Shown: positions 7,988 to 60,547 of the stretch, one piece after another | Position numbering within the stretch: position 1 is the first letter of the stretch | How the letters are laid out: each line of letters begins with the position of its first letter | NCBI GenBank assembly: GCA_023481105.1 | Contig: JAMCWK010000110.1 | Span: 27,414 to 91,413, forward strand | From: Acidobacteriota bacterium | GTDB taxonomy: Bacteria; Acidobacteriota; Terriglobia; Acidiferrales; UBA7541 | Direction: 5' to 3' | Length of the DNA: 64,000 nucleotides | The notes under the pieces: generated by a model | Told to the model about the DNA's origin: nothing | Database searches by the model: none | What the model saw: only the letters and a program-made list of their open reading frames with translations | Position numbers and translations under genes: made by a program

Positions 7988-8064
7988 TACGGAGGCGGGG
8001 CGAAGGCTGGTACAATCGTGCGCGGTTCCGAAGAGCACGCGCAAGTCATTTGCAAGGAGCGAGC

Positions 8065-8673: not shown

Positions 8674-8839
8674 GCGGAGCCGCAGGGAATCCTCGCAAGT
8701 GGTCTCCAGAAATTTCAAATTGCAGATTTCAGATCGCAAAATCGAAGACCAAGAATCAGTAAGGGGCAGGAGCCAGCTCTTCGTGCCCTGCGGCGTTCCT
8801 GCGACCGTTCGCAAACGTTTTGCGTGCCTTGCGACTGCG

Positions 8840-22173: not shown

Positions 22174-22180
22174 GAAGGTG

Positions 22181-23275: not shown

Positions 23276-23435
23276 TGCGGGCTTCGTCCACCAGCATGAC
23301 GGGGATATCGTCGCGAATGGGATAGACGCGATGGCAGGTGGAACACTTCAGCCCATGGTTGTCCGGCGTCAAGCGCACCGGAGTCTTACACAGCGGACAA
23401 ACGAGGATTTCGAGCAGCTCTTTGCTGACGGCCAT
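23262..23435 (-). CDS. Trm112-family small zinc-ribbon protein
   Basis: 57 aa: MAVSKELLEILVCPLCK...CSTCHRVYPIRDDIPVML. The start is taken at ATG 23435. Confidence 0.75.
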   Translation of the reverse strand: MAVSKELLEILVCPLCKTPVRLTPDNHGLKCSTCHRVYPIRDDIPVMLVDEARIEAE

Positions 23436-36056: not shown

Positions 36057-36455
36057 CTACGCCGAGCGGAATTCGCGGGAGCAGGCGTCGCAGGGGCAGA
36101 TTTCGCGCAGATAATCGAAGCTGTAGATGCCGGTGGTGTGGCCGTCGGTGAAATCAAAACGAATCGCATAATTGCCGACGGGGTGAGCAGCCGCGGCTTT
36201 GGGCTTGGGCTTGAACATGGGCAGTTCGGCGCCCATGCCGGGGAGCGGCGACGCGGCGGGGCCAGCGGCGAACGGCGCGGCGGCCTTTTTTTTGCGCTCG
36301 TCCTCGCAGGCGGCACAGGGACATTTCTCACGCAGGTAAACAAAATCGTAGTGGCTGGCGTGGCCGTCGCACCAGGTGATGTCCACGCCCGCGCCGGTGG
36401 AGACGTGAATCTTCACCGAGGCGGGTTTTTTGCGCGTATCGAGCGGAATCGGCAT
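36057..36455 (-). CDS. DUF971-domain protein with two CPC-x2-C motifs
   Basis: Contains ITWCDGHASHYDFVYLREKCPCAAC and FTDGHTTGIYSFDYLREICPCDAC, separated by an Ala/Pro/Lys-rich linker. Confidence 0.7.
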   Translation of the reverse strand: MPIPLDTRKKPASVKIHVSTGAGVDITWCDGHASHYDFVYLREKCPCAACEDERKKKAAAPFAAGPAASPLPGMGAELPMFKPKPKAAAAHPVGNYAIRFDFTDGHTTGIYSFDYLREICPCDACSREFRSA

Positions 36456-36607
36456 GAACGAATCATCTTAGCAGATTTGCCGCAAGGAATCGGATGGTGC
36501 GCGGCGAGCCGCATAGCGTGCGCGCAGGAGCAGGCCGCTGCTCCTCCTTCGCGTGCTCGGAGCAAATATCAGTGTGGACCTCAAGCTTCGCCTGCGATGG
36601 AACATCG

Positions 36608-38503
36608 TCAACTGAAAATGCGATAGGCGATGAAGGCGCTGAGGTAGGCCACGACAGTCATGTAACCAAATTGGATGGCGGGCCATTTCCAGCCGCCGGT
36701 TTCGCGGCGAACGACGGCGAGCGTGGACATGCACTGCATGGCAAAGGCAAAGAAGATCAGCAGCGCGACCGCGCCGCCGGTGGTCAGGTCCTTCTGAATC
36801 GCGCCCTGCAGGTCGCGGCTTTCGGGGTCGGAGTCCATGCCGTAGATGGTGCCCAGAGTGCCGACGATGACTTCGCGCGCGGCCAGCGAGGTGATCAGGC
36901 CGATGCCGATTCTCCAGTTGAAGCCGAGGGGCCGGATGACCGGCTCGACGACGCGCCCGATGGTGCCGGCAAGACTCTGCTCGATCGGAGGAGCTTTGCC
37001 GTCCTGCAGCGGAATGTGCGCGAGCAGCCAGATAACAATGGCCACGCCGAGAATCACGGTGCCTGCGCGGCGCAGGAAAACCTTCGCGCGGTCAAATAGC
37101 CGCAGGCCGAGCGAGCGAAGTGTGGGCCAGCGGTACGGCGGCATCTCCAGCACGAACGGGGCGCGGCCGCTGCGCAGAATAGTGGACTTCAGCAGACGCG
37201 CGGTTCCGATGGCGGCAAGGAATCCGAGTACGTAAAGCCCCAGCAGCGTGGCGGCGCGCGCGCCGAGAAACGCGCCCAGCACCGGACGATCCGGAATAAA
37301 GGCGGCGATGAGCAGCGTGTAAACCGGGAGGCGCGCGGAACAGGTGATGAACGGCGCGATCAAAATGGTGGCAATGCGATCGCGCTTGTTCTCGATGGTG
37401 CGCGTAGCCATGATGGCGGGAACCGCGCAGGCGTAGGCGGAAAGCAGGGGAATGAACGACTTTCCTTGCAAGCCAACCTTGGCCATGGTGCGGTCCGCAA
37501 TGAGCGCGGCGCGCGCCAAGTAACCGGAATCCTCCAGTATGCCGATTAACAGAAACAACAGCAGGATCTGTGGCAGGAAGACGATCACCGAGCCGACGCC
37601 GCCCCAAACACCTTCCGTCAACAGGGAACGCAGCGGTGAATCCGGGAGCAGGCCGGCCACGGCGAGGCCCGAACGTTCGACGAGAAACTGCAAGCCTTCC
37701 ATCAGCGGCACCGCAGCCTTGAAAATCGTCTGGAACACGGCAAGCACGACGAGCAAGAAAATGCCAGGGCCAGCAACGGGGTGCAAAAAAACGGAGTCGA
37801 GGCGGCGCGTCCAGAGAGGCGGCGCGGGAGCATGATAGCGGGCGTCGCCACCGACGCGCGAGGCCCACTCGCGACAGCGCGGAATGTCGTTGAGCACGGG
37901 CAATTCAACATTGGCTTTGCGCGCGGGCAGGCCGGAAGCGAGAAAGCGGCGTACGTCGTCCAGCCCTTCACCGCGCACCGCACTGGCGAGCACAACCGAG
38001 GCACCCAACTGGCGCGACAGCGCGGCGAGGTCAACGTGACCGTGGCGCTGGCGCAGGTCGTCGGCCATGTTGAGAATCACGAGGGTGGGCAGTCCCATAG
38101 AGAGCACGGGCGCGGCCAGCAGGAGATGGCGTTCGAGATTGGTGGAATCGAGAATAAGCAGGACCGCGTCCGGGCGGCCCACTTCGGGGCGGCGGCCGTT
38201 GAGCACGTCGTGCGCGACCTTTTCATCCTCGGAACGGCTGGACAGGCCGTACACTCCGGGCAAATCCACCAGCGCGATTTCGCGGCCGTCTTCCAGGCGG
38301 GCCTTCCCCAAACGATGCTCGACTGTGACGCCCGGAAAGTTGGCGACTTTTTGCCGCATGCCGGTGAGCTGGTTGAACAGAGTGGATTTGCCAGAATTGG
38401 GAGGGCCGACAATAGCCACCAGCCGAAATGCGCCGGCCACGGACTCCGTTGGAGGGGAGAGAGTGGCGGTGTTTGCCGAACCGCACCCAGCACAATCGCT
38501 CAT
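36608..38503 (-). CDS. feoB: Ferrous iron transporter FeoB
   Basis: G-domain (IVGPPNSGKSTLFNQLTG, DLPGVY) followed by a polytopic membrane domain. 631 aa. Confidence 0.9.
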   Translation of the reverse strand: MSDCAGCGSANTATLSPPTESVAGAFRLVAIVGPPNSGKSTLFNQLTGMRQKVANFPGVTVEHRLGKARLEDGREIALVDLPGVYGLSSRSEDEKVAHDVLNGRRPEVGRPDAVLLILDSTNLERHLLLAAPVLSMGLPTLVILNMADDLRQRHGHVDLAALSRQLGASVVLASAVRGEGLDDVRRFLASGLPARKANVELPVLNDIPRCREWASRVGGDARYHAPAPPLWTRRLDSVFLHPVAGPGIFLLVVLAVFQTIFKAAVPLMEGLQFLVERSGLAVAGLLPDSPLRSLLTEGVWGGVGSVIVFLPQILLLFLLIGILEDSGYLARAALIADRTMAKVGLQGKSFIPLLSAYACAVPAIMATRTIENKRDRIATILIAPFITCSARLPVYTLLIAAFIPDRPVLGAFLGARAATLLGLYVLGFLAAIGTARLLKSTILRSGRAPFVLEMPPYRWPTLRSLGLRLFDRAKVFLRRAGTVILGVAIVIWLLAHIPLQDGKAPPIEQSLAGTIGRVVEPVIRPLGFNWRIGIGLITSLAAREVIVGTLGTIYGMDSDPESRDLQGAIQKDLTTGGAVALLIFFAFAMQCMSTLAVVRRETGGWKWPAIQFGYMTVVAYLSAFIAYRIFS

Positions 38504-38506
38504 CGA

Positions 38507-38797
38507 TCAGTCCTGACCGTTCGAGCCGGAACGGAGCCGGAGGCGTGAGGCGGTCTCGCGGCGAAGGGCGATCTCCGAGCCGTCCACGCGGTAAACGCGC
38601 GGATCGCCGCCGGGAGCGCAGCGGCCGACGACAATGAGCGTGCCGGGGATGAAGCCGAGCTCCATCATGCGCTGGTTGTCCTCATCGGCCAGCTCGAGGC
38701 GCTCAAGCACGGCGTGTTCGCCTTCATGAAGTTCCGAGAGCACTGCAGGCGTGCGATGCGCGTGGCGCTTGGTGTGGCGTTTCTGACGGAGAGCCAT
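38507..38797 (-). CDS. feoA: FeoA-family protein
   Basis: SH3-like FeoA block (LMELGFIPGTLIVVGRCAPGGDPRVYRVDGSEIALRRE). Start at ATG 38797. Its stop is 3 nt before the feoB start. Confidence 0.8.
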   Translation of the reverse strand: MALRQKRHTKRHAHRTPAVLSELHEGEHAVLERLELADEDNQRMMELGFIPGTLIVVGRCAPGGDPRVYRVDGSEIALRRETASRLRLRSGSNGQD

Positions 38798-38863: not shown

Positions 38864-38882
38864 GTTGAAACTAAGTTGCAAC
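38864..38882. promoter_or_regulatory. 19-bp inverted repeat GTTGAAAC-TAA-GTTGCAAC just downstream of the feoAB -10 (candidate metalloregulator operator)
   Basis: Read directly from the sequence. The half-sites match 7/8 as an inverted repeat. It contains CTAAGTTGCA, which also occurs at 6154-6163 in the fur promoter. Confidence 0.4.
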
Positions 38883-38892
38883 TCACACGGCC

Positions 38893-38922
38893 ATTCTAGC
38901 GCGGGGGGCCGCGGCACGTCAA
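38893..38922 (-). promoter_or_regulatory. Candidate promoter of feoAB
   Basis: On the minus strand: -35 TTGACG (38922-38917), an 18-nt spacer, then -10 TAGAAT (38898-38893). Confidence 0.45.
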
Positions 38923-38969
38923 GGGAAATTGCTTGGATTTACCCACTCTGCCACTACAATAGAAACATC

Positions 38970-41888
38970 GTGCGCTGCCCCATCACAAGCCGCCTTCTGT
39001 CGCTTCTGCTGATGGCCGCGGTGTGTTTTCCCTCCGCTTCCGGCGGCCAATCCGGCGCCGCCAAGAAGGAAGATTCGCGTGCGGGCACGGCGCAGAGCGC
39101 GTCGAAAGACAAGCAGGCCGAAAGAGTGTTCGCCAGCGCCGTGCAAGCGGAGCAGGAAGAACTGTGGAGCACGGCGTATGCCCTCTATGCGGAGGCGGCG
39201 CAGTTGGCGCCGGAGAATACGGAATACCTGGCGCGGCGGGAGCGGGCGAAATTCCGCCTGGTGCAACAGCACATGGACCGCGCGGAATGGCAAGCGGTGC
39301 AAGGGCAACTGGAGGAGGCGCGCGAGGAACTGCGCATAGCCTTGACCCTGGACCCCAAGTATCGTGTGGCGCAGGAACGCCTGGCGCAACTAAGCCGGCA
39401 AACAGCGCAAGAAACCGGACGACGATCGGAGTACGACGCGGCGCTGCTCCAGCTTAAGCCCCGTGCGGGGAAGCGGAACTTCGATGTCCGCGGCGATACG
39501 CTCGCGGCCTACGAGGCGGTGGCACGGCAGTTCGGGCTGACCATGTCGTTCGACCAGGACGTCAGCGCCAAGCGAATCCGCTTTCGCGTGTCCAACGTGG
39601 AATTCGGCGCGGCGATTAGCTTGCTGGAACAGCAGACAAACACGTTCACGCGCGCCATTGACGAAAAGGCATTCCTGGTGCTGCCGGACACGCCGGACAA
39701 GCGGCGACAGTACGAACCGCGCGTGACGCGAACGCTGATGCTGGCGGGCGCGACCTCGCCCGAGGAGTTGACCGAAATCCGCCAAGTCGTGCGCGACATC
39801 GGCGGCATCCCCAATCCCCAGATCAACGCCGCGACGCGGCAAGTGGTACTGCGCGGAACGCCGCAGTCGGTGGCGCTGGCCGTGGATTTGATCCGCGAAT
39901 TGGAACAGCCTCGCGGAGAAATGATGCTTGAGGTGGAATTCCTGGAGGTGGACCGCACCCGCGCGCTGACGCTGGGCGTGACGCCGCCGTCGTCGGGTCA
40001 GATTTTCACGCTCAGCCCGGCGGACGTGCGCGAGGCGCAGCAGTCCACCGAGGCGCTGTTGCGCGTGATCCAACGCGTGTTCGGGCAGTCTGGAGCGCAC
40101 GGCAATCTGAGCCAGGCGGAACTCGCGGCGCGTCTCGCATCGGGACAAGTGGGCGTCGCTTCCTTGCTGCCGCCGCTGATTGCGTTCGGCGGAGGCAAGA
40201 CGATTTTTCTGGCCACGCTGCCGGGAGCGGCGGCGGACTTTGCCGAGACTTTCAGCCTGGTGCAACGTGCCCGGCGAGTTTTGCTGCGCGCCGAAGACGG
40301 GCAGCAGGCCACATTTTTTGTGGGCGACCGATTCCCCATCAGTTTTTCGGTACTGACGCCGGGAATCACCGGGTCGCAGATTGTTGCGGGCATTAAGAAA
40401 ACGGATTTCGTGACCGACCTGGGGCCGTTGTCCGTTGCGACGGGAGATTTTGACGGCGATGGGACAGCCGACCTGGTCACGGCGAATTCCGTGTCCAACA
40501 CGGTTTCCGTGCTGCTGAACACAGGCAGCGGAGATTTCGGCGCGAAGTCAGACATCGCCGTGGGGGCGGAGCCGCGCGCTGTGGTGACGCGGGATTTCGA
40601 TAAAGACGGCAAGCTGGACCTCGCGGTGGCTGTGGCCAATTCCACAAGCAACGTGGTGGAAATCCTGCTGGGAACCGGGACGGGAAGTTTCAATCCCGCG
40701 ACCACGTTGCTGGCGGGATTGACGCCGGTGGCGCTGGCCAGCGCGGACTTCGACGGCGACGGCGAGTCCGACCTGGCAGTGGTGAACAACGGGGACAACA
40801 GCGTGCACATTTTCCTGGGCACCATTGCTGGAAACTTCACGTTCGCGGCTTCGCTGGCCACGGGCGTGGCACCGAGCGCGATCGCCGCCGGCGATTTCAA
40901 TGATGACGGAGCGCCGGATTTGGCGGTGACGAATTCGGCGGATGACACCGTTACCATTTTCTTGGGCGACGGCAACGGCCAATTCAGTTCGAGCACAACC
41001 CTGCTCACCGGCGCCGACCCGGTGGGCGTGGTGACCGGCGTTTTCGCCACGGGCGGCAAGACCAGCATGGCCGTGGCCAACCGCGGAGCAAATTCCGTGT
41101 CCGTGTTTCTGGGAAACGGCGATGGGACGTTTGTGTCGCGGCAGGATTTTGCAGTGGGCGCTCAACCCGCGGCGCTCGCCGTGGGCGACTTCACCGGAGA
41201 CAACCGCCTAGACTTGGCCGTGGCCAATTCAGCCTCCAACACGATTACTGTTTTGGCCGGGCTCGGCGACGGCGGGTTTGTGAGCTCCGATTTCACTTCC
41301 CCGGCGGCGCCCTTCGCACTCGCACCGGCCGATTTCGACAAGGACGGGCGGCTGGATCTGGTGGCGGCCAACCGCGACGCCAACAGCGTGACGGTCTATC
41401 TGAACACGACCACGACCTTGCCCATTTCAGCGGGGCAGCAGACGGCGTATCCCGCCGTGCAGTTTGAGGATTTGGGCGTGAAGGTGCGCGCGACCCCTCG
41501 GCTACATGCCAATCGTGAAGTGACGCTGCAATTGCAGTTCGAGCTGCGCAGCTTCGCCACTGCGCGATTCAACGATATTCCCGTGATCACCAACCGCACC
41601 GTGGATCAAATCGTGCGGCTGCGGGAAAACGAACCGGCCATACTGGCTGGAATCTTGCAGCAGGACGTGGACCGCTCGGCGAGTGGATGGCCGGGCGTCG
41701 TCGCGGTTCCCGGCGCGGGGCAAACGGCCAGCAAACGGCAGGGGCAGCGGCACGAGACGGAGTTGATAATCGTCATTACGCCGCGACGCATCCGCCTGGC
41801 GCAGCGCAAGGACCGCACGATTTACGCGGTCGGGAAGGATTCCGCAGCGCCTTCCTCCGGGGGAACACCAGCAAGGCCGCCGCAGTAG
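38970..41888 (+). CDS. Secretin-family outer-membrane protein with N-terminal TPR-like region and an embedded seven-blade FG-GAP/VCBS propeller
   Basis: GTG start followed by a signal peptide (RCPITSRLLSLLLMAAVCFPSASG). Secretin N-domain-like and channel blocks are present (MLEVEFLEVDRTRALTLGV; LLRAEDGQQATFFVGDRFPI; VQFEDLGVKVRATPRL; IPVITNRTVDQIVRLRENEPAILAGIL; ELIIVITPRRI). Seven FG-GAP-like repeats lie between the second and third of these blocks. Confidence 0.8.
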   Translation: MRCPITSRLLSLLLMAAVCFPSASGGQSGAAKKEDSRAGTAQSASKDKQAERVFASAVQAEQEELWSTAYALYAEAAQLAPENTEYLARRERAKFRLVQQHMDRAEWQAVQGQLEEAREELRIALTLDPKYRVAQERLAQLSRQTAQETGRRSEYDAALLQLKPRAGKRNFDVRGDTLAAYEAVARQFGLTMSFDQDVSAKRIRFRVSNVEFGAAISLLEQQTNTFTRAIDEKAFLVLPDTPDKRRQYEPRVTRTLMLAGATSPEELTEIRQVVRDIGGIPNPQINAATRQVVLRGTPQSVALAVDLIRELEQPRGEMMLEVEFLEVDRTRALTLGVTPPSSGQIFTLSPADVREAQQSTEALLRVIQRVFGQSGAHGNLSQAELAARLASGQVGVASLLPPLIAFGGGKTIFLATLPGAAADFAETFSLVQRARRVLLRAEDGQQATFFVGDRFPISFSVLTPGITGSQIVAGIKKTDFVTDLGPLSVATGDFDGDGTADLVTANSVSNTVSVLLNTGSGDFGAKSDIAVGAEPRAVVTRDFDKDGKLDLAVAVANSTSNVVEILLGTGTGSFNPATTLLAGLTPVALASADFDGDGESDLAVVNNGDNSVHIFLGTIAGNFTFAASLATGVAPSAIAAGDFNDDGAPDLAVTNSADDTVTIFLGDGNGQFSSSTTLLTGADPVGVVTGVFATGGKTSMAVANRGANSVSVFLGNGDGTFVSRQDFAVGAQPAALAVGDFTGDNRLDLAVANSASNTITVLAGLGDGGFVSSDFTSPAAPFALAPADFDKDGRLDLVAANRDANSVTVYLNTTTTLPISAGQQTAYPAVQFEDLGVKVRATPRLHANREVTLQLQFELRSFATARFNDIPVITNRTVDQIVRLRENEPAILAGILQQDVDRSASGWPGVVAVPGAGQTASKRQGQRHETELIIVITPRRIRLAQRKDRTIYAVGKDSAAPSSGGTPARPPQ
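40413..41416 (+). repeat. Seven tandem FG-GAP/VCBS-like blades (protein-level repeats) within the secretin gene
   Basis: The seven blades, in order: GDFDGDGTADLVTANSVSNTVSVLLNTGSGDF; RDFDKDGKLDLAVAV...VEILLGTGTGSF; ADFDGDGESDLAVVNNGDNSVHIFLG; GDFNDDGAPDLAVTNSADDTVTIFLGDGNGQF; GVFATGGKTSMAVANRGANSVSVFLGNGDGTF; GDFTGDNRLDLAVANSASNTITVLAGLGDGGF; ADFDKDGRLDLVAANRDANSVTVYLN. Confidence 0.85.
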
Positions 41889-49581: not shown

Positions 49582-52500
49582 TCACCGCGGCAGCGGCAGC
49601 AGCAAGACGCGGTTGTTGGCCGCGTCGGAAACCACCGCCAGATTCGTCAGCGGATGAATGGCTACGGCAAACTGCGACGACCCGGCGATGCCGATGACGT
49701 CGCGCACGCGCCGCTGCACGAAGTCCAGCACAGAAATGGAACGGCTGGCCGTGTTCACTGTCACCAGCGTGCTGCTGGCGAAGTTGTAGGCCAGCGAAGT
49801 GGGATTAATTCCGACGCGCACGCTGCTCGGTTGCAGCGTGTTCGGATTCACCAGCGCCAAGATGTTCCCCAAACTGGCATTGCCGACAAACGTTTCCGTA
49901 ACCGGATCAAATACAACTCCGGTCGGAAGAGAAACGTTTGGCACGCGGCCGAGAATCGAAAGGCTGGTCAGGTTCACCACCGCCAGGTTGCCGGATGCCG
50001 CATGCGCCACTGCGGCATATTGGCGGTCGGGATCCACCGCCACTGCGACTGGCCGGGCATCCACGGACACCACGTTCACCGCGCCGCCCGCAGCGGCGTC
50101 AAATATGCTGATGGAATTTGAAGTGGCATTCGCTACCACAGCGTTCCCTGTGCGTTCGTCAATGGTGACACCAAGCGGTTCGGTGCCCACGGGCACGGTG
50201 ACGGTTACGGTCGGAGGCGACACAGTCAAATCCAAGATGGAAGCATTACTCGAGCCGCTATTGGTGACTACCGCGGTGTTCAGCCGCGAACTCACGGCCA
50301 CGGCTTGCGGGCTGGTCCCCACGTCCACGGAGGAGGAAATGGTCCCGGTGGCCAGGTCGATGAAGGAAACATTGTCACATCCCGGGTTGGTCACCACGGC
50401 CAGATTGCGTTCGGCGTCAATGGCCACGCCGCCGGGCGCCGGCGCTGTGCAGGTGGCCCCGCCTGCGCCCACCATGTCCACAGCTTGCACCACGAGGAGG
50501 TTCAGAACGTTGGAGGTTGCGCCGCCCGGGTCCAGCACATCCAAGACATAATTGTGCGGCCCGGCCAGAAGCGCGAAGGGGATGTTAACGGTAAGCTGGC
50601 GGTCTGTGACGCCGGCAGGCAGAGGCAACGGCACACCGTCCAAGCGCACGAGCGATCCTCCAACAAATCCTTTTCCAAAAAGTGTCAGGGGCAAATCCAC
50701 GCCGGAGGAGAGCGTAACTCCCGGCGCCAGTTGCCGTGGCAGCGGAAGGCTGATGGCGGAAACGTGCAGAGGACGGATTGCGCCGAGGTTAATTGCAGTG
50801 ACTGTGCCATCCGTCTCGTTGACCACCAAGGCGATGTTAGTGCCCGGGTCAATGGCCACGGCGCGCGGCCCCACGCCGACAGTCAACTTCGCCATGCGCG
50901 CAGGAGTCTCCGGGTCAATCACCGACGCCTCATTGGTGGAGGCGTTAATCGTGACGGCAATGTTCGTGTAAGGGTTGAAGGCGGCAGCCACAGCGCCCAG
51001 TTCGCTCAACGGGATATTTTTCACGGCCTGGTCGAACAGATTGAAAAGCGCCGGGCCGTTTGCTCCGGGGTCCACCAGGACGGCCTGCTGCGTGAAGGAA
51101 TTGATGGCAACGCCGCGAACGTTGGGCCCGATGGACGCAGTGGCGAGGAAGGGAGTGCTGACCGCAGTCCCTCCGCTGCTGGAAGCATTGGGCGCGCCGG
51201 TTTGCGTGTAAGTAAAAGTAGTGCTGGAGGGCACGGCGGCAATGCTGAACACCCCGTTGAAGCTCGCGTCGGCCATGCCGGAAATCAGCACCGCCTGGTT
51301 GAGCTGGAAGGCATGGCCGGCCGCCGTGGTGATGGTGGTGGAACCGGCGGCGCGGTTGGCGGACGAAATACTCGTCGCAGTGCGCAGGGCAAGGTCCACG
51401 ATAGAAATTGTGCCCACGCCTCCCGGCGTTGCCACCGCCCAATTCAGCCGCGGCTCCACGGTCACCTTCGGGTTGGCGCCTGTGGTGATGGTGGTGGTGC
51501 TGACAATGGCCGGCGGGGCAAGCGTGAGGTCCAGGATCTCCGCGTGCGTGGAATTCTGATTGACGACCAGCGCCATGCCGGTCAAGGGATTCGCCGCCAC
51601 GGAAAACGGCGCGCTGCTCACGTTGGCGGTGATGGTGGACGTCACGGCGCTGGTAGCAAGATCCACAATGGAAAGGCTCGGAGTTCCCGCGGCGCCCGGG
51701 CAGCCGGTGTTGTTGCCGCTGTTGACCACGACCGCCAGATTGCGCAACGCGTCCACAGCAACACTGGTCGGGTAATTGCCCACAGCAATCGGTGCGCCCA
51801 CCGTAGCCAGCGTGTTCACGTCAATCAGGGAAACCGTGTCCGAGCAGCGATTAGTGACCACGGCGATTCCCGTGGCTTCATTGATGGCAATCGCACCCGG
51901 CAAACTGCCCACGGCGATGGGCGGCCCGACTACGCTTGGCGCGGCCGACGGCCGTACCGCCAGGTTGGTGGCGGCGAACAACGCAGGATTGGAAATGTTG
52001 CGCACGGCGACGGGGAATAAGCCCGCCGTGCTCAGGTCCGCGGCAGACACTGTCACGCTGGCCTGGCGCCCTTCATTAGCAGTATTGACGGTCGTAGACC
52101 GCGTATTTCCGGCAAACTCGCCGGTAATCGAAGGGTTGGTGGAGGCGCCAAAGTAACCGCCGTTAACGTTGAAGGTCAGCGTACCGGAGCCTTGAGCCGC
52201 GCTGTCCGGAGCGGCACCCACCATGGCGGGACGCACGGAGACCACTGCCAGATTCAACGCCGTGGAGGTCGTGCCGTTCTGCCGCTGCACATCCAAAGCG
52301 AGCGTGCCTGTGGACGCCAGCAAGCTTGCATCGAGACGCGCACGGATGAGCGTGGAGCTGAATTGCGAGACGCTGGTGGGGTTCAGCGGCACGCCGTTCA
52401 CGCGCACAATGCTGGTCGAAAGGAAATTCGTGCCGGTCAGGTAAACATCTTGAAACACCACGCCTTGCGCCGCAGTCGTCGGACTAATGGCGGTCAGCGT

Positions 52501-54081
52501 CGGGTCGCCGGAAGTCTGCAAAGTGACAAGGACGGAGGTGGCCCGGGTGGGGTCCGCCGCGGACGTGGCTTTGACGGTCACGGAATTGGAGCTGCCCGTG
52601 GCCGTCCCGCCGCCGCTGGTAGCATTGACGCCGGTTTGCGAGTACGTGAACGTAGCGATAGACGGAGTAGAAAGGATGGTGAAGGTGCCGTTGAAACTCG
52701 AATCCGAAACTCCGGCGATGGTCACGCTCCCCCCAGGCAAGAAGCCGTGTGCGGCGGTGGTGGTGATGGTGACCACGGAGCCCGTGGTGATGGTCGCGGA
52801 GGACGAGCCGACCGCAGCCGTCCCGCCGTTGCTCGAAGCGTTCGGCCCGCTCTGCGAAAAAGTAAAAGCGGTGGTAGTGGTCACGGAAGCAATGGTGAAC
52901 GTGCCGTTGAAACTCACGTCGGGAACGCCGGAGATGGTGACGCTCTGGCCCGTGGCAAAGCCGTGCGCTGTGGTGGTCGTGATGGTGACCACGCCGGAGG
53001 ACCGCACGGCGCCCAGAGAGGAGCGCACCGCGCCGCTCGTGGCAATCGTTGCGGAGCTGGTGGTCGGAGGAGTGGCAGGAGCCGTGAACAGGCCGCTGGC
53101 GGTGATGGTCCCCACCGTGCTGTTTCCGCCGGCAATATTATTCACTGACCAGGTCACGCTGGTGTTGGAGGAACCCGTGACGCTGGCAATGAACTGCAGC
53201 GTCTCGCCGGTCCCCACGACGGCTTGCGCGGGCGTCACGCGCACATTGACTCCCGAACTCAGGTCCACAATGGCCGTGCCGCTGGCCGTGGAATCCGCCA
53301 CGCTAGTCGCCTTGATGGTCACCGCATAAGACGTCACCGTCCCGCCGCCGCTGGAGACATCGGTCCCGGTCTGCGCATAGGTGAAGGTGGTCGTGCTGGG
53401 CACGGTGCTGATGATGAAGGAGCCGTTAAAACTGGTATCGGTGACGCCCGAAACGATAATCAGTTGATTGACGACGAAGTTATGCGCGGCGGACGTGGTG
53501 ATGGTCACCACGTTGGCGGCGCGCGCGGCGCCGCTGCTCGTGATGGTTGCCGTCACAGGAGTAGGAAGCACATCCGGGGCCGTATACAAACCCGCGCTCG
53601 TGATCGTGCCCACCGAGGAGTTGCCGCCGGCCACATCATTCACCAGCCAGTTCACCGAAACGTTCGCTACCGTGCCTCCGCCGCTGGTCGCATCCGCGGC
53701 TGTCTGCGAAAAAGTAAATGTCGTGGAGGACGGGACGGAAACCACGGTAAACGTGCCGATAAACGTGGCGTCTGAGACTCCCGATATCGTGACCGAGTTG
53801 CCCACGGCAACGCCGTGCGCCGCGCTTGTGGTGATGGTTACGACGTTAGAGGCGCGCACCGCGCCATTGGTGGCAGCTATGGCTATTGTGCTGGCGCCGG
53901 TGACCGCAGCGGAGAATTGCTGCGTGCTGTTCAGCGTCACAATCGTGGCCGACGGGGAGACGGTGACCACCACCTTGCCGCTAGTTCCGCCGCCTGATCT
54001 CCCTCCGCTGCTGCAGCCGCTCGCCATCACCGCCAGCGCCAGTGCCGCCGGCAGCAAGAATCGGCTCGTCCATCGCCTCAT
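49582..54081 (-). CDS. Giant (1499 aa) predicted lipoprotein containing Ig-like and IPT/TIG-like domains, YVTN-type beta-propeller repeats and five copies of an unrecognised ~65-aa module
   Basis: GGAGGA precedes the ATG. Lipobox LAVMASG-C is present. Ig-like units: VTPAQAVVGTGETLQFIASVTGSSNTSVTWSVNNIAGGNSTVGTITASGLFTAP. IPT/TIG-like units: PTLTAISPTTAAQG...LTGTNF. YVTN-like blades: G..P.AVAV....N.AVV.N..S..VS..D. The ~65-aa modules are described in the findings. Confidence 0.8.
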   Translation of the reverse strand: MRRWTSRFLLPAALALAVMASGCSSGGRSGGGTSGKVVVTVSPSATIVTLNSTQQFSAAVTGASTIAIAATNGAVRASNVVTITTSAAHGVAVGNSVTISGVSDATFIGTFTVVSVPSSTTFTFSQTAADATSGGGTVANVSVNWLVNDVAGGNSSVGTITSAGLYTAPDVLPTPVTATITSSGAARAANVVTITTSAAHNFVVNQLIIVSGVTDTSFNGSFIISTVPSTTTFTYAQTGTDVSSGGGTVTSYAVTIKATSVADSTASGTAIVDLSSGVNVRVTPAQAVVGTGETLQFIASVTGSSNTSVTWSVNNIAGGNSTVGTITASGLFTAPATPPTTSSATIATSGAVRSSLGAVRSSGVVTITTTTAHGFATGQSVTISGVPDVSFNGTFTIASVTTTTAFTFSQSGPNASSNGGTAAVGSSSATITTGSVVTITTTAAHGFLPGGSVTIAGVSDSSFNGTFTILSTPSIATFTYSQTGVNATSGGGTATGSSNSVTVKATSAADPTRATSVLVTLQTSGDPTLTAISPTTAAQGVVFQDVYLTGTNFLSTSIVRVNGVPLNPTSVSQFSSTLIRARLDASLLASTGTLALDVQRQNGTTSTALNLAVVSVRPAMVGAAPDSAAQGSGTLTFNVNGGYFGASTNPSITGEFAGNTRSTTVNTANEGRQASVTVSAADLSTAGLFPVAVRNISNPALFAATNLAVRPSAAPSVVGPPIAVGSLPGAIAINEATGIAVVTNRCSDTVSLIDVNTLATVGAPIAVGNYPTSVAVDALRNLAVVVNSGNNTGCPGAAGTPSLSIVDLATSAVTSTITANVSSAPFSVAANPLTGMALVVNQNSTHAEILDLTLAPPAIVSTTTITTGANPKVTVEPRLNWAVATPGGVGTISIVDLALRTATSISSANRAAGSTTITTAAGHAFQLNQAVLISGMADASFNGVFSIAAVPSSTTFTYTQTGAPNASSSGGTAVSTPFLATASIGPNVRGVAINSFTQQAVLVDPGANGPALFNLFDQAVKNIPLSELGAVAAAFNPYTNIAVTINASTNEASVIDPETPARMAKLTVGVGPRAVAIDPGTNIALVVNETDGTVTAINLGAIRPLHVSAISLPLPRQLAPGVTLSSGVDLPLTLFGKGFVGGSLVRLDGVPLPLPAGVTDRQLTVNIPFALLAGPHNYVLDVLDPGGATSNVLNLLVVQAVDMVGAGGATCTAPAPGGVAIDAERNLAVVTNPGCDNVSFIDLATGTISSSVDVGTSPQAVAVSSRLNTAVVTNSGSSNASILDLTVSPPTVTVTVPVGTEPLGVTIDERTGNAVVANATSNSISIFDAAAGGAVNVVSVDARPVAVAVDPDRQYAAVAHAASGNLAVVNLTSLSILGRVPNVSLPTGVVFDPVTETFVGNASLGNILALVNPNTLQPSSVRVGINPTSLAYNFASSTLVTVNTASRSISVLDFVQRRVRDVIGIAGSSQFAVAIHPLTNLAVVSDAANNRVLLLPLPR
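51157..51369 (-). repeat. Fifth copy (R5) of the ~65-aa module, located between beta-propeller regions
   Basis: The sequence is ISSANRAAGSTTITTAAGHAFQLNQAVLISGMADASFNGVFSIAAVPSSTTFTYTQTGAPNASSSGGTAVS. Confidence 0.7.
52597..53874 (-). repeat. Four copies (R1-R4) of a ~65-aa protein module, VVTITT-x2-AHG-x5-VTISGV-x-D-x-SFNGTFT-x9-FT[FY]-SQT-x6-GGGT
   Basis: Read from the translation at aa ~70-139, 180-250, 350-423 and 428-495. Boundaries are approximate. Confidence 0.7.
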
Positions 54082-54158: not shown

Positions 54159-57020
54159 CTAAAATGTGCGGCTCACGGTAAACCGGAACGTCTTCAGCGG
54201 CTCAAAAGGCCGGCCGCGGCCGATATCGCTTTGAACCATAGAATTCAACTGCGGAATAATCTGCGAAGCCAGCACGCCGGGGGGCAAAGATCTGCGCACA
54301 TCGTCGCTGAGGAAGTAAGCCCCTTGGGGCTCGAAAATACTTTCACTCATGCGCAGGAAATTGTAGGCCCAGTAGATGCGGAACGGCGCATTGACCACCG
54401 GCAATTGCACCACGAATTCCAGTCCCGCAGATGCGCGGAACTTGAAATTCGATCCCGACGCGATGTCCAGGCGGCCGTTAATCGTCGTGCCGGGAAACTG
54501 CTCGCGGAGCTTTTGGACGCCGACAGGGTCCAGTTGCAATTGGGATTTGCGCGCGATCCCGTTCAAGCCGGTGTCCACGAACAAGCTCATGCTCACCGGG
54601 CCGACCAGCGGGATGCGGTACTCGAGATTGGAGACCCACTGCGTGTCGCCGCCGGGGGTGGTGGCTACGTAATCGAGCACAGGAACCAGCAACTGGCGCA
54701 AGCTGGGGTTGCCCTGGGAATCGAGCTGCTGGGGATCGCGGAACAGGACCTGCACGTTCTTGGAGGTGGGCACGAAGGCCCACGGCGAAATCGAAAAGAA
54801 GTCGAAGCCGCGGATGCTGTCTTCCCCGCCGAGATAGAAACGATTAAACGGCGGGAGCGCGATACCTCCGAATCCGGTGACGAACGACGCCAACACGCGC
54901 ACGCCGATGACGTTCCGGCGTTTATTGACCGGGCGGAAGTATTTGCCTTCGAAAGTGTGCGAAATCGTGTTCACGTTGCCGCCGAGGAAGCCTCCTTCAT
55001 AGCTGAAGGAGTAGAAGAAGCTCCGGCCGCCGGTGGGGTTGATGGGGTTGTCAATCGTGTTGTGCGAAAGGGTCGGCGTGATCTTGCTGGAGCGAATGCC
55101 GCGCAGCGCGGAGGGCCCGGCGAGCTGGCGGAATTGCAAATTCTCGAAGAGCAAGCGGGAAGCGTCGCTGAATGCAGCGATGGTGCTGTCGGTATAGGAA
55201 TAGGTGAGCCCGGCGCGCGCAAAACCGAAGCGCCGCATGGGATAGCTGGCGAAGACGGAAAACCCTTTGCGGTTCTGGTTGTAGTTCTGAGCCCGCGCAG
55301 GATCCACTTGCACGGTCTGTCCCAGCAGGATGGAAGTTTCCCGGGCCTGGTTATAGCTGAAGCGGCTGTTGAAAAGCGTGAAGCCGGTGGAGATGGGCCG
55401 GTCAAACAAGTACGGTTCGGTGAAACCGAAAATAAAATTGCGCTGGCGGTCGCCGAAGTCGGCGGAAAACGTCAGAGTCTCGCCGAGACCCAGGAAATTG
55501 TTGGTCTGGTAGCTCAGGCCGATGAAGCTGCCAGCGATGCCGCTGATGCCGCCGGTAAGTCCGATGGATTGCTTGCCCTTCTCCTTCACCTTCAGGTTGA
55601 TGTCCACCGTGCCTTCTTTGATGTTGCGCTTGAGCTCGGCGTGTTCGGGCTTGATCTGCTCGAAGTAATCGAGCTGATTCAGGCGCAGCAGGCTGACCTC
55701 CCAGGCGCGATTGTTGAACAGGTCGCCCTCGTCGAGGAGCACTTCGCGGCGGATGACTTTGTCGCGGGTGGTCGTATTGCCGGAAAACTCGATGCGGCGG
55801 ACGAAGAATTGTTTTTGCTCGTCGAAGGCCAGCGTCAGGTTGATGGTCTTGTTCTGCGTGTCAATATCCGTGCGCGGCTCGGGAGTGAAATCAATGAAAC
55901 CAAATGCGCCGTAAAGCTTGCGGTACTCGTCCAGCGCCTTGCGCACTTTGTCCGTGGAAAAAATCTCGCCGGGCTTCATCGGAAACAAGTCCACCAGATA
56001 TTCGGTCTTGAAGTAGAGACCCTTGTCGGGATCGGGGCTGATGACAAACACTCTGCCGAGACGGAAGAGTTCGCCTTCCTGAATGGGAATGGTGATGTTG
56101 GTGCGCTTGCCGCGCTTGCGGCCAATGAACGGCCAGGGGCCGGGCAGTCCGCCGCGGTTCACATCCTCGGTTTCCGCGACGGGTTCTTTCACCAGCACCT
56201 GGAAATAACCGTTGTCCTGATAGAGGCCGCGGATGCCCACCTCGAGGTCTTCCGCCAGCTTGCGCCGGTCAAAGGTTTTGCTGAACACGTTCCACTCGAA
56301 CAGGTAGAGCGGAATGGCGTACGGACGGGAATTGCGCATGGCGCGAATAATTTTGCGATCGGAAAAGGCCGTGTTGCCTTCGATATTGATTTTGCCGACT
56401 TTGACCTTGGGGCCTTCCTCAACGTTAAAGGTAAGCTTGATGGCGTTGGTCTGAGCGATGCGCTCGTAGGTGGTATTGATGACGGCAAATTGCCTGCCTC
56501 GCTCGCTCAGCAGCTCTTTCAAGACGACCTCCGCGCGCTTGATGCGCGTGGGGTCGAACTGGCTTTCCACGGAGAGGCCGACTTTGCGTTCCTTGAAGCG
56601 CTCCAGGATTTCCGATTCCGTGACGGACTTGGCGCCCTTGTACTCGATGCGGCGGATGACCGGGCGCTCTTTCACGTAGAAAACGACGATGCGGCCATCT
56701 GCGCGGTCGGGGCTGGGCTCGACCTCGAGGCGAATATCTTCAAAGAACTGCGTATTCCAGAGCGCTTGAAAATCGCGGCGCAGCGACTCTTCGTTGTACA
56801 CATCGCCCTCACGCGAAAAAATGCGCGCTTTCAGGGTATCGCGCGGGATGCGGCGATTGCCGACGATTTCAATGCGCTGGATGACTGCCGGGGAAGACTG
56901 CTGGGCGAAAAGCGGAGGGGCTCCCGCCGCTCCAACACACAAGAGGAGCAGCGCGGCGGCCCAACGAAGACAGAGTTTTTTTATCGCGGCCGTCGTAAAA
57001 TTCAAGGCCGCTCCCCCCAA
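54159..57020 (-). CDS. bamA: Outer membrane protein assembly factor BamA
   Basis: 953 aa with a signal peptide. Has POTRA repeats (IQRIEIVGNRRIP..., VRRIEFSGNTTTRD) and a C-terminal Omp85 barrel ending in an aromatic residue (TVSRTF). The exact TTG start is uncertain. Confidence 0.9.
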   Translation of the reverse strand: MGGAALNFTTAAIKKLCLRWAAALLLLCVGAAGAPPLFAQQSSPAVIQRIEIVGNRRIPRDTLKARIFSREGDVYNEESLRRDFQALWNTQFFEDIRLEVEPSPDRADGRIVVFYVKERPVIRRIEYKGAKSVTESEILERFKERKVGLSVESQFDPTRIKRAEVVLKELLSERGRQFAVINTTYERIAQTNAIKLTFNVEEGPKVKVGKINIEGNTAFSDRKIIRAMRNSRPYAIPLYLFEWNVFSKTFDRRKLAEDLEVGIRGLYQDNGYFQVLVKEPVAETEDVNRGGLPGPWPFIGRKRGKRTNITIPIQEGELFRLGRVFVISPDPDKGLYFKTEYLVDLFPMKPGEIFSTDKVRKALDEYRKLYGAFGFIDFTPEPRTDIDTQNKTINLTLAFDEQKQFFVRRIEFSGNTTTRDKVIRREVLLDEGDLFNNRAWEVSLLRLNQLDYFEQIKPEHAELKRNIKEGTVDINLKVKEKGKQSIGLTGGISGIAGSFIGLSYQTNNFLGLGETLTFSADFGDRQRNFIFGFTEPYLFDRPISTGFTLFNSRFSYNQARETSILLGQTVQVDPARAQNYNQNRKGFSVFASYPMRRFGFARAGLTYSYTDSTIAAFSDASRLLFENLQFRQLAGPSALRGIRSSKITPTLSHNTIDNPINPTGGRSFFYSFSYEGGFLGGNVNTISHTFEGKYFRPVNKRRNVIGVRVLASFVTGFGGIALPPFNRFYLGGEDSIRGFDFFSISPWAFVPTSKNVQVLFRDPQQLDSQGNPSLRQLLVPVLDYVATTPGGDTQWVSNLEYRIPLVGPVSMSLFVDTGLNGIARKSQLQLDPVGVQKLREQFPGTTINGRLDIASGSNFKFRASAGLEFVVQLPVVNAPFRIYWAYNFLRMSESIFEPQGAYFLSDDVRRSLPPGVLASQIIPQLNSMVQSDIGRGRPFEPLKTFRFTVSRTF

Positions 57021-57082: not shown

Positions 57083-59509
57083 TCAGTGCGCGACCGGGGT
57101 TGCTTCCAGGACCTGCCGGAAGCTGAGGCCCTCACCGGAAACGTACACCTCCAGCGTGGCTGGACGTTGCAAGCCACCCTGAATGAGCGTCTCGGAAAGC
57201 GGGTCCTCGACGTATTTCTGTAGCGCGCGCCGCAACGGACGCGCGCCGTAATTGCGGTCCCCGCAGGTTTTTTCCAGTATCCACTGGCGCGCTTCCGGCG
57301 TCAGCACGATCTGCACCTGGCGGTGGATCAGCGTGTCGTTGATTTGCCCCGCCAGCAAATCAATGATGCGCAGCATGTCTTCATCCACCAGCGGATTGAA
57401 AATGATGATTTCATCCAGGCGGTTGAGGAATTCCGGATTGAACAGCCGCTTCACTTCGCTCATCACCATGTCTTCCATCTTGGCGCTGGCGGTGTCTTCG
57501 GAGGCGGATTGAAATCCGAGCGCCGAGCGCTTCTGCAAGTGCCGCGCGCCGATGTTGGAGGTCATGGTGATGATGGAATTGCGGAAGTCCACCGTGTTGC
57601 CGATGCCGTCGGTCAACTGTCCGTCCTCAAAGACTTGCAGAAGAATATTGTACACATCCGGGTGCGCCTTTTCGATTTCGTCGAGCAGAATGACGGAATA
57701 CGGCGTGCGGCGGATGCGCTCGGTCAACTGGCCGCCTTCTTCGTAGCCCACATAGCCCGGAGGCGCGCCAATCAGTTTGGAGACGGAGTGCTTCTCCATG
57801 TATTCGGACATATCAAAACGGATCAGAGATTTTTCGCTACCGAAGAGGAACTCCGCCAGGCGGCGCGCGACCTCCGTCTTGCCCACGCCGGTGGGGCCAA
57901 GAAAGAGGAAGCAGCCGACGGGCCGCAGGGGCGATTTCAATCCGGCGCGGCTGCGGCGGATGGCGCGGGCCAGCGCGGTGATGGCTTTGTCCTGGCTGAT
58001 GACGCGCTTGTGCAGCTCCACCTCGATGCGCAGCAGTTTTTGCTGCTCGTCTTCCTTGATCGAAGTGACGGCCACGCCCGTCCAGCGCGCCACCACTTCT
58101 TCGATGTCCTCGCGCGTGACGATGCCCGTCGAGGAATCGTCCAGCTTCAGCTTTTCCCGCAACGCGCGCAGCAGTTCTTTTTCTTTGCGCTCTTCTTCCG
58201 AATAGAAACGCGCCTTCTCAAATTCGTGATTGGCGATGGCCGTTTCCATGCGGTGCGTGATGAACTTCACGCGTTTCTGGGCCTCGGTAATTTCTTCGGG
58301 CAGCATGGACTGGCGCAGCTTGACGCGCGCGCCGGCCTCGTCAATCAGGTCAATGGCCTTGTCGGGCAGAAAGCGATCTGGAATATAGCGGTTGGAGTGA
58401 TAGACGGCGTACTTGATGGCTTCGTCCGTGTAGCTGACGGCGTGGAATTTTTCGTAGCGCTCGCGCACGCCTTGCAAAACGCGGATGGCTTCCTCTTCGT
58501 TCGGCGCGGAAACTTTTACGGCCTGAAAGCGCCGCTCGAGGGAGCGGTCCTTCTCCACGGACTTACGGTACTCGGCGGGCGTGGTCGCGCCGATGCACTG
58601 AATCTCGCCGCGGCTCAGCGCCGGCTTCAGAATGTTGGCGGCGTCGAGCGAACCTTCTGCGGAGCCGGCGCCGACCAGCGTGTGCAGCTCGTCAATGAAG
58701 ACGATGGCGTTCTGGCTCTCCATCAATTCCTTCATGATGGTTTTCAGGCGCTCTTCGAACTGCCCGCGATATTTCGTGCCCGCGACGATCAGCGAAAGGT
58801 CCAGCGAAAGGATGCGCTTGTCGGCCAGGAACGGCGGCACGTCGCCGTCGGCGATGCGCTGGGCCAGGCCTTCGACGATGGCCGTTTTGCCCACGCCCGG
58901 CTCGCCGATAAGCACGGGATTGTTCTTCGTGCGGCGACAGAGAATTTGTACAACTCGCTCGAGTTCGCGGTCGCGCCCCACCAGCGGGTCGAGCTGGCTT
59001 TCCATGGCCGCCTGCGTGAGGTCGCGGCTGAACTCGCTAAGCAGCGATGTTTCCTTCGGACGGTTGACCGGAACTTTTTCGCTGCTGGAACGCGCCAGTT
59101 CCTCGCGCAGCGCGGAAAGCCGCAGGCCGCGCTCGTGGAGAATTTCCGCGCCAAAACATTTTTCTTCGCGCAGGATGCCCAGCAGAAGATGTTCGGTGCC
59201 GACGTGTTTGTGGCTGAGGCGCTCGGCCTCTTCGGAGGCGTGGTTCAAGATGCGCTTGCATTCCTGGCTGAGCGGAACTTCGACGGACGTGGAAATCCGC
59301 TCGCGGATGGTAATGCGCGATTCAATCTCTTTGCGGATGGATTCGATGGAACCGTGCGAGCGCAGGAAGCGATTGGCGAGGGCCTTATCTTCGCGAAGCA
59401 GGCCGAGCAGCAGATGCTCCGTCTCGATGAACGGGCTGCCATACTGGCTGGCCTCGTACCGGGCGAAGAAGATAACGCGCCGCGCTTTTTCCGTGTACTT
59501 CTCGAACAT
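57083..59509 (-). CDS. clpC: ATP-dependent Clp protease ATP-binding subunit ClpC-like (class I AAA+)
   Basis: Clp_N repeats ([13 protein letters not shown]; [13 protein letters not shown]). Two Walker A motifs (GEPGVGKT; GPTGVGKT). 808 aa. Confidence 0.9.
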
Positions 59510-59512
59510 AGG

Positions 59513-60313: not shown

Positions 60314-60547
60314 GTTCTGCTTTCCTGCCAACTTCGCTGGCGGCTGCGACACGAATCAAACGCCCGCGTGACAAATTAGATGCCAGAAGCTCACCGCCCG
60401 ACTAGCTGCAGTTAGGTGTGAAATCACCCCAACATGAGAAAGTGATTGCCTCTTTTCCCTCTCGATGCAGCATGCACCAAAATGAACTCGAAATCCCAGA
60501 TTCTGGAACGGCCCCAAATCCTTGTCCTTGTGCCGATTGTAGCACGC

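Follow-up and report, generated by a model that had tools for sequence, protein, structure and literature searches.

To our knowledge, the accepted view is that every secretin is a gated exit duct for a dedicated machine that spans the envelope, with Gate 1 acting as the sealing element. In RcpA, Gates 1 and 2 project from the inner barrel into the lumen, which measures 62 Å at the lip, and the Gate 1 tip comprises amino acids (aa) 242-255 (PMC10499894). The gates have been proposed to hinge upward for channel opening, by analogy with the secretin of type III secretion systems (T3SS), and the differences among secretin types at either gate, at the lip, at the cap gate and at the N-terminus concern loops rather than domains (PMC10499894). 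Here we describe a secretin-family gene located in a 64,000-nucleotide stretch of DNA from an Acidobacteriota bacterium (assembly GCA_023481105.1, contig JAMCWK010000110.1, positions 27,414 to 91,413 of the forward strand), which we call the window. The encoded protein carries a complete seven-blade FG-GAP β-propeller grafted into the tip of the Gate 1 hairpin. It retains both arms of Gate 1 with the conserved glycine, as well as Gate 2 and the strands of the barrel. A conserved lineage, present in hundreds of soil Acidobacteria, has swapped its Gate 1 tip for a folded domain of 38 kDa, which would mean either that the gate closes very differently or that the barrel has been re-used as a scaffold.

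Domain order and insertion point

The gene occupies positions 38970 to 41888 of the forward strand (stop codon included), and its open reading frame (ORF) is uninterrupted from a GTG start through 972 codons. An alternative, longer reading frame could begin at a TTG codon at 38865, and this extension would cross the promoter and operator of the neighboring feoA gene. Homologous proteins align from residue 1 of the GTG start. The initial annotation of the window, made by reading the sequence, proposed that a signal peptide, a TPR-like region and N-domains are followed by a secretin domain into which seven blades are placed. Pfam and phmmer searches and an AlphaFold2 model bear out this order. 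Thus, we have very high confidence in an architecture consisting of a signal peptide, TPR, putative N0-like and N3-like domains, a first part of the secretin domain (part A), the seven-blade propeller and a second part of the secretin domain (part B). The monomer model was built on 116 sequences and has a mean predicted local distance difference test score (pLDDT) of 81.

The predicted Sec-type signal peptide (38970 to 39044; approximately aa 1-25, MRCPITSRLLSLLLMAAVCFPSASG) was read off the translation, and inspection revealed no canonical lipobox in it. Across the 116-sequence alignment of the family, the N-terminus is variable yet hydrophobic. A TPR-like region of five helices is modeled at 39087 to 39407 (aa 40-146) with pLDDT values of 85-96, and the corresponding Pfam TPR matches are weak (aa 101-141). 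An N0/N1-like periplasmic domain is assigned from the secondary structure of the model (39474 to 39710; aa 169-247). The model of a plain ortholog, meaning one that lacks the propeller, matches the N0-N1 structures of GspD, EscC and InvG in Foldseek searches (E ~1e-4), and a relative called P0162 yields weak Pfam matches to STN and Secretin_N. The N3-like (Secretin_N) domain directly precedes the secretin domain (39723 to 39902; aa 252-311) and has a β-α-β-β-α arrangement in the model. Its Pfam Secretin_N match at aa 269-315 is weak (21.9 bits, below the 28.2 cut-off), and E values better than 1e-5 are obtained with some relatives. This segment also aligns with the N3-to-secretin junction of XcpQ when phmmer is used to search the PDB.

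Part A of the secretin domain (39918 to 40343; aa 317-458) includes the first barrel strand, the lip region and the ascending strand of Gate 1 (FFVGDRFPIS), with model strands at aa 431-442 and aa 447-458. Part B (41454 to 41795; aa 829-942) includes the descending strand of Gate 1 (VQFEDLGVKV), the Gate 2 hairpin, the amphipathic-loop region and the remaining barrel strands through the last strand, ETELIIVITPRRI, with model strands distributed over aa 830-942. Both gate hairpins are present in the AlphaFold2 model. The Pfam Secretin family (PF00263) matches aa 814-939 with E = 3.9e-23 (82.3 bits, compared to a cut-off of 27.5). This match begins at profile position 29 and extends to position 166 of 169, which places the beginning of the profile before the repeats. 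In phmmer searches of the PDB, aa 390-458 align with RcpA residues 183-243 and aa 829-942 with RcpA residues 253-371, and part B aligns to XcpQ, GspD and PilQ as well as to RcpA.

Comparison with a propeller-less ortholog of 621 aa (P0122) gives the same picture. By BLASTP, aa 48-466 of the window protein correspond to P0122 residues 47-462, and aa 810-963 correspond to P0122 residues 470-620. The Pfam Secretin match in P0122 is uninterrupted (profile positions 20-166). The RcpA alignment and the P0122 match indicate that parts A and B together make one complete and contiguous secretin domain. Secretin sequence is thus recovered on both sides of the repeats by phmmer and by comparison with P0122, which upholds the earlier proposal that a whole propeller has been placed between blocks that normally adjoin each other. 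The nested layout goes well past anything expected by chance.

Relative to P0122, the inserted block spans 40368 to 41396 on the forward strand (aa 467-809; 343 aa) and takes the place of a 7-residue stretch within the ~30-aa Gate 1 tip of the ortholog. The RcpA alignment breaks at residues 243/253, which coincides with the Gate 1 tip of that protein, and therefore the propeller replaces the Gate 1 tip. The N- and C-termini of a propeller adjoin each other, and this suits insertion in the tip of a hairpin. Two disordered linkers (aa 460-470 and aa 817-828) flank the propeller in the AlphaFold2 model, with secretin strands beyond each. Positions F450, G452 (the gate glycine) and P456 do not vary among the 116 sequences. 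In Gate 2, the same holds for N868 and P871, and I870 is invariant or nearly so.

The propeller itself (40392 to 41405, forward strand; aa 475-812) is recognized by the Pfam families FG-GAP_3 (E = 7e-51, 8 stretches) and FG-GAP (E = 5e-28). It is modeled as 28 strands, corresponding to seven blades with four strands each, at pLDDT values above 95. A DxDxDG-type loop is found in six of the seven blades, whereas blade 5 is degenerate (VFATGGKTS). The propeller is of the calcium-loop type, and calcium binding by the DxDxDG loops is predicted only from the motif. The best Foldseek matches are seven-blade β-propellers, including KICSTOR chain B, the EPTP domain of LGI1 and BBSome subunits (E = 2e-13; target template-modeling score ~0.7). 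When the full model was used as the query, the propeller dominated the matches, and therefore nothing was learnt about the barrel from this search.

Relatives and distribution of the family

A protein database search listed 120 matches that are nearly all full-length (~890-1090 aa) and share 39-79% identity with the window protein. Both FG-GAP and Secretin Pfam domains are present in every listed match except for three truncated partial sequences. Where the source is named, it is a metagenome-assembled genome (MAG) from Acidobacteria. The public entries bear only automatic names, such as 'FG-GAP-like repeat-containing protein', 'GspD/PulD' and 'CpaC', and so the family is present in public databases yet is not recognized. 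A scan of one genome per GTDB species uncovered relatives in at least 481 genomes. Among the best 80 of these, almost all are labeled as Acidobacteriota/Terriglobia (Ca. Acidiferrales, Acidobacteriaceae, gp2 and Acidipila), and all 80 reside in Terriglobia-type loci. Five loci labeled as Candidatus Dormiibacterota, Verrucomicrobiia or Saccharimonadales (L023, L060, L066, L078 and L084) exhibit Terriglobia synteny, including the FTR1 operon, the secretin-propeller gene and truB. These are probably mis-binned or mislabeled MAG contigs.

An insert of 280-469 aa (median 381) is located at the Gate 1 site in all 116 aligned homologs. This conservation bears on the prospect that the nested layout is an assembly chimera, a frameshift artifact or a decaying pseudogene. 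The 972-codon ORF is intact, the propeller is modeled with confidence, and the same architecture recurs in more than 100 independent assemblies that share 39-79% identity, with every domain conserved in a manner resembling purifying selection. The recurrence in so many assemblies rules out a chimera or a frameshift, and we regard the chance that any such defect explains the layout as negligible.

To classify the protein, NCBIfam subfamily models (GspD, PilQ, SctC, MshL, HofQ and NF042912) were run on 46 family members. All 46 match the GspD, PilQ, SctC, MshL and HofQ models, but only with the C-terminal ~130 aa and with scores that are about one quarter of the cut-offs or less. For the type II secretion system (T2SS) model GspD (TIGR02517), the score is 58.7 bits versus 351 and the match is restricted to the C-terminal 130 aa, and no Gsp genes are found among the scanned ORFs of the window. 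The type IV pilus (T4P) model PilQ (TIGR02515) scores 41.5 bits versus 284, and no pil genes are present in the window scan or in the annotated homolog loci. The T3SS model SctC (TIGR02516) scores 36.6 bits versus 238, and the 46 members fall below the curated cut-offs for MshL and HofQ. The Amuc_1098 family model (NF042912) scores 29.2 bits versus 750 and covers only model positions 2-136 of 805. Several homologs carry the JGI name for the Tad secretin RcpA/CpaC. However, the match to RcpA reaches only E = 5e-4, no tad or cpa genes are nearby, and the 'CpaC' labels are automatic.

A similar result was obtained with structures, where the plain ortholog model (pLDDT 80) matches PilQ, ExeD/GspD, InvG, BfpB, pIV and RcpA in Foldseek searches (E = 1e-18 to 1e-10) with no clear favorite. 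The protein is a bona fide member of the secretin superfamily that lies outside all curated subfamilies. A folded domain in Gate 1 is not present in any solved secretin matched here, and full-text literature searches, which also covered secretins without a machine and FTR1 in Acidobacteria, returned nothing on a secretin with FG-GAP or VCBS repeats. Secretin-like particles that lack an inner-membrane partner have been observed by cryo-tomography in Flavobacterium (PMC8455137), and these offer only a loose parallel. Thus, the earlier statement that this layout has no characterized precedent stands. The initial annotation also raised the prospect of a common and already characterized subclass, of which the first half proved correct given the number of species genomes involved, but no characterized family was found.

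Other relatives were collected in an exhaustive phmmer search with aa 150-458, which yielded 95 clusters (50% identity) at E < 1e-30. The propeller-less P0122 is 47-49% identical to the window protein over both aligned halves and is found in the corresponding locus, where it adjoins the DUF971 gene. A second close relative without a propeller, P0160, has 603 aa, and the Gate 1 tip of both proteins is ~30 aa long. Larger inserts occupy the same site in other relatives. The insert of P0155 (1328 aa) combines FG-GAP blades with three Big_2 domains, that of P0148 (1200 aa) carries He_PIG, PKD-like and FG-GAP modules, and P0127 (1336 aa) is a further example. Across these relatives, the sizes at the Gate 1 site are ~30 aa, ~345 aa or ~700 aa, the last of these formed by blades and Ig-like domains.

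A family of plain paralogs around P0196 has the same TPR-N-secretin layout in proteins of ~600-690 aa. Its members are 27-33% identical to the window protein over aa 150-458, have a Gate 1 tip of 25-35 aa, and come from Terriglobales (Ca. Angelobacter, Silvibacterium and Edaphobacter). Four such TPR-secretin genes (P0196, P0365, P0270 and P0359, in loci L089, L093, L094 and L095) always directly follow smc-purC-cvpA and a small HTH_8 (Fis-like) gene, and no secretion-machine genes are present beside them. The contexts of three plain relatives are on contigs of only 3-4 kb and are little informative. Considered together, the plain and inserted relatives indicate that Terriglobia hold a clade of stand-alone TPR-secretins in which the Gate 1 tip became an insertion hot spot in one branch.

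Two further types of protein were noted. Six proteins of 700-860 aa (P0162, P0169, P0176, P0185, P0186 and P0189) are built from the N0/N1-like module of this secretin, repeated three or four times in tandem. These could be periplasmic ring partners, and no secretin domain is present in P0162. In addition, a protein of 1421 aa (P0041) carries FG-GAP, Secretin, MlaD, RseC and E1_FCCH matches together, which is probably the result of a gene-call fusion.

Gene neighborhood and the iron operon

On one side of the secretin-propeller gene lies a divergent feoA-feoB-DUF971 operon and on the other a convergent truB-infB-nusA operon, as judged by Pfam matches. A putative -10-like box (TACAAT, 38955 to 38960, forward strand) is located 9 nucleotides before the GTG start. 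A TA[CG]AAT box is found 14-45 nucleotides before the predicted start in many homolog loci, and 35 of the 79 scored loci have an exact TA[CT]AAT. These boxes suggest that the gene is monocistronic and has its own promoter. With this spacing, the mRNA would be leaderless or nearly so.

The initial annotation reported no T2SS, T4P, Tad or T3SS partner genes within 10 kb. This result was extended by Pfam scans that took in the majority of the larger ORFs in the 64 kb window, among which no component of these four machines was found, and no machine gene is present in the ±10 kb flanks of seven annotated homolog loci. The gene is alone in every locus examined, which points to a secretin function that is independent of an inner-membrane ATPase platform. 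Nevertheless, the protein might be a conventional secretin of a T4P, T2SS or Tad machine that is encoded elsewhere. The propeller would then be an accessory module at the gate, which might regulate it or might correspond, within the same protein, to the propeller adhesins associated with pili. The secretin core, the gate glycine and Gate 2 are fully conserved, as would be expected of such a protein, and N0/N1-like domains are predicted, which in classical secretins contact the inner-membrane platform. Moreover, secretin genes that are unlinked to their machines exist, and our gene scans covered loci rather than whole genomes. We nonetheless consider this explanation unlikely. Beyond the solitary state of the gene in the scanned ORFs and flanks, the protein falls short of all curated subfamily cut-offs and the sister family of plain secretins is likewise orphan. 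In addition, ~0.5 MDa of propellers carried on the gate tips would be expected to block the passage of a pilus or a folded substrate.

The divergent iron-uptake operon (36057 to 38797, reverse strand) was defined by Pfam and tblastn and contains feoA (~38507-38797), feoB (36608-38503) and a gene for a DUF971/GBBH-like_N protein (36057-36455). The feoAB genes had been treated as irrelevant neighbors in the initial annotation. Counts were made for the 61 loci in which each flank is 4.5 kb or longer. Of these, 57 carry an adjacent, divergent iron operon and 47 an adjacent truB, making the iron operon the most conserved feature of the locus. Only the iron side is retained in 12 loci, only the truB side in two and neither side in two, the last of these reflecting a deletion that leaves the DUF971 gene (L051 inspected). 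A survey of homologs thus reveals conservation both of the nested insert and of the iron operon.

The operon usually found in homolog loci encodes FTR1 fused to an FtrD-like domain, two MacB/FtsX-type permeases, an ABC ATPase fused to Fe_dep_repr_C, and DUF971. The closest relatives of the window protein (68-79% identity; L008-L010) have FTR1, and therefore feoAB in the window has taken over the position of a different iron permease system. The swap of FTR1-FtsX-FtsX-ABC for feoA-feoB is seen in this genome and in two other loci (L001 and L002), and the upstream operator and the downstream DUF971 gene are kept. The Terriglobia FTR1 operon was inspected in locus L003 (5090-9867) and is the same in most loci. 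It ends with the DUF971/GBBH-like_N gene and includes neither a P19 gene nor a thioredoxin gene. The domain fused to FTR1 in L003 is FtrD-like (1651-like), and the domain fused to the ABC ATPase is Fe_dep_repr_C (FeoA/DtxR-C-like).

A 19-bp palindrome, GTTGAAACTAAGTTGCAAC, is located at 38864 to 38882 and is unique in the window, where it is a candidate metal-regulator operator for the divergent iron operon. A predicted sigma-70-like promoter (TTGACG-18-TAGAAT; 38893 to 38922, reverse strand) points at feoA, and the palindrome is directly downstream of its -10 box. The consensus for the element is CYAGTTGCAACT-N-AGTTGCAACTRG, with a length of 19-23 bp, and at least 13 of the 18 consensus positions are matched in 72 of 88 loci. 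In about this number of Terriglobia loci it comes shortly after a near-consensus promoter of the iron operon. The palindrome is unlike the classical Fur box or DtxR box as we know them, and it is probably the operator of a metal regulator.

In one locus (L007), an inserted gene of the GH46 (chitosanase) family at 9080-9889 separates the iron operon from the secretin-propeller gene. Here the operator remained next to FTR1, and the secretin gene kept its TACAATAGAAAC box. Likewise, the palindrome is not found upstream of the secretin gene in loci where the iron operon is absent or displaced. The element therefore tracks the iron operon, and coregulation of the secretin gene and the iron operon by this palindrome is not supported.

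Elsewhere in the window, a BamA gene (54159-57020, reverse strand) encodes five POTRA domains and an Omp85 domain. Directly downstream, in the same orientation, is a gene for a 1499-aa protein (49582-54081, reverse strand) whose sole Pfam match is E1_FCCH. The 1499-aa protein may be a TamB/AsmA-like partner. Four other large ORFs have a coding-like GC content at third codon positions, and the predicted proteins of 1018 aa (57323-60379, forward), 453 aa (7337-8698, reverse), 409 aa (8699-9928, forward) and 394 aa (22115-23299, forward) have no Pfam match at E < 1e-5.

Possible arrangement of the ring and comparison with known systems

We tentatively favor a model in which the protein forms a stand-alone secretin ring with an external crown or plug of propellers, to which we would give slightly less than an even chance. 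All secretin core elements are conserved, suggesting that the protein would form the usual multimeric, double-walled barrel in the outer membrane. The TPR region at its N-terminus may take the role of a separate TPR pilotin. A ring of 12-15 propellers, each of ~38 kDa and ~46,000 cubic Å, would amount to ~0.5 MDa, and 13-15 copies would fill 0.6-0.7 million cubic Å. By our own arithmetic, a lumen of ~60-75 Å would have to hold a fully packed column of propellers more than 130 Å long. The propellers appear too bulky for the lumen, which argues that Gate 1 cannot close in the canonical manner and that the propellers are outside the barrel.

The Gate 1 arms are probably held hinged upward in this model, as in open-state secretins, and the 15-residue flexible linkers would let the propellers gather at the pore mouth into a crown or plug that serves as a ligand-binding head. 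Because the linkers are short and upward-hinged arms would bring the tips near the lip, the outer mouth would be the geometrically easiest place for such an assembly. Insert length at the Gate 1 site ranges from 0 to ~700 aa, and some inserts contain Ig-like domains. This tolerance argues for an unconfined and probably surface-exposed location. Indeed, Big_2, He_PIG and PKD-like (Ig-like) modules are typical of surface proteins. No dedicated inner-membrane type II, type IV pilus or Tad machine would be needed. The initial annotation had envisaged a ring of propellers that decorates the pore. With the insert at the lumen-facing tip of Gate 1, simple decoration does not suffice, since the propellers cannot fit in the lumen and a non-canonical gate arrangement is required.

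The same ring might instead carry its propellers in the periplasm, below the gate. In that arrangement, the barrel would mainly anchor a propeller cage in the outer membrane. The ligand of the cage could be metal or peptidoglycan, or a partner complex such as that of FTR1, for which the cage would replace the missing P19. Folding of the domain takes place in the periplasm, from which it has no evident route across the membrane. The propeller is ~47% identical to that of the window protein in the 116-sequence alignment, compared to 42-50% for the periplasmic N-domains, with the linkers being variable, and it is therefore as conserved as the periplasmic domains. The adjacent FTR1 operon also lacks a P19-type periplasmic iron-binding protein, in contrast to the described system (PMC6083913). 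However, judging from the dimensions of RcpA, the space below the gate inside the N3-like ring would be too small for 12-15 propellers, and the 15-residue linkers would be short for reaching beyond that ring. The surface-type modules in the larger inserts also speak against confinement to the periplasm. We regard this arrangement as doubtful.

Several observations temper our enthusiasm for the external crown. The crown position of the propellers is a geometric proposal, and the monomer model has a predicted template-modeling score (pTM) of only 0.48, such that the relative orientation of the domains is not fixed. A folded 38 kDa domain that is tethered at both ends has no evident route to the cell surface, making a periplasmic location possible. 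The level of propeller conservation, similar to that of the N-domains, is unlike that of a fast-evolving surface antigen. It is also possible that a partner machine is encoded beyond the scanned window and flanks.

The external crown would acquire a biological role if the ring were the outer-membrane partner, as a portal or a receptor, of an iron acquisition system. A role in iron acquisition at the outer membrane is suggested by the conserved divergent pairing with an FTR1/P19-type or FeoAB operon. This is the weakest step of the proposal, and we consider the iron-portal reading improbable on present evidence. The link to iron comes from the gene neighborhood alone, in one bacterial class in which the whole region is syntenic, and four of the 61 loci have no adjacent iron permease. 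Moreover, as noted above, the operator follows the iron operon and not the secretin gene. In its most complete form, the proposal holds that a machine-independent secretin has turned into an outer-membrane receptor or portal. The barrel would be the anchor and channel, the gate hairpin would be the stalk for a ring of integrin-like propellers, and the whole would be the missing outer-membrane component of FTR1/P19-type (and Feo) uptake in Terriglobia. We judge this combination to be quite improbable. If true, it would provide the first candidate for the outer-membrane step of the widely conserved FTR1/P19-type iron system (cf. PMC6083913). The pairing with FTR1/P19-type and Feo permeases makes the protein a testable candidate for this step. 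In addition, the Gate 1 insertion site looks like a natural display position for protein engineering.

The FTR1-P19 cluster of C. jejuni (CJJ81176_1649-1656) has no identified outer-membrane component and no secretin neighbor (PMC6083913). It shares with the Terriglobia operon a core that consists of an FTR1 permease, a 1651/FtrD-like membrane domain, two FtsX-type permeases and an ABC ATPase. The Terriglobia operon differs in having neither P19 nor thioredoxins, and in its FTR1-FtrD-like and ATPase-Fe_dep_repr_C fusions.

The classical secretins (GspD/PulD/XcpQ, PilQ, RcpA, InvG/SctC, BfpB and pIV) share with the window protein the PF00263 domain and both gate hairpins, including the glycine of Gate 1. 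The N3-like domain that precedes the barrel and the N0/N1-like domains, as predicted here, would be further points in common. The Gate 1 tip of the classical secretins is ~10-17 residues long in RcpA and GspD, as counted from the alignments, whereas a propeller insert of 343 aa is found here. The window protein also differs by its fused N-terminal TPR region and by having no cognate machine genes nearby. The Amuc_1098 family type IV pilus outer membrane protein (NF042912) likewise has a signal peptide and TPR before the secretin domain, and 45 of the 46 family members match the first 135 positions of its model. However, no type IV pilus cluster adjoins the window gene, and Amuc_1098 lacks a propeller as far as the model description indicates.

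The plain Terriglobales TPR-secretins of the P0196 family resemble the window protein in their TPR-N0-N3-secretin layout, in their lack of machine genes and in belonging to the same bacterial order, but they have no propeller and their genes reside in the smc-purC-cvpA-HTH_8 context rather than beside an iron operon. Finally, FG-GAP propellers of the integrin-alpha type share the seven four-stranded blades and the DxDxDG-type loops that six blades carry here. The propeller of the window protein differs from these in that it is not a terminal ectodomain, but rather a nested insert in which both ends re-enter a β-hairpin of a membrane barrel.

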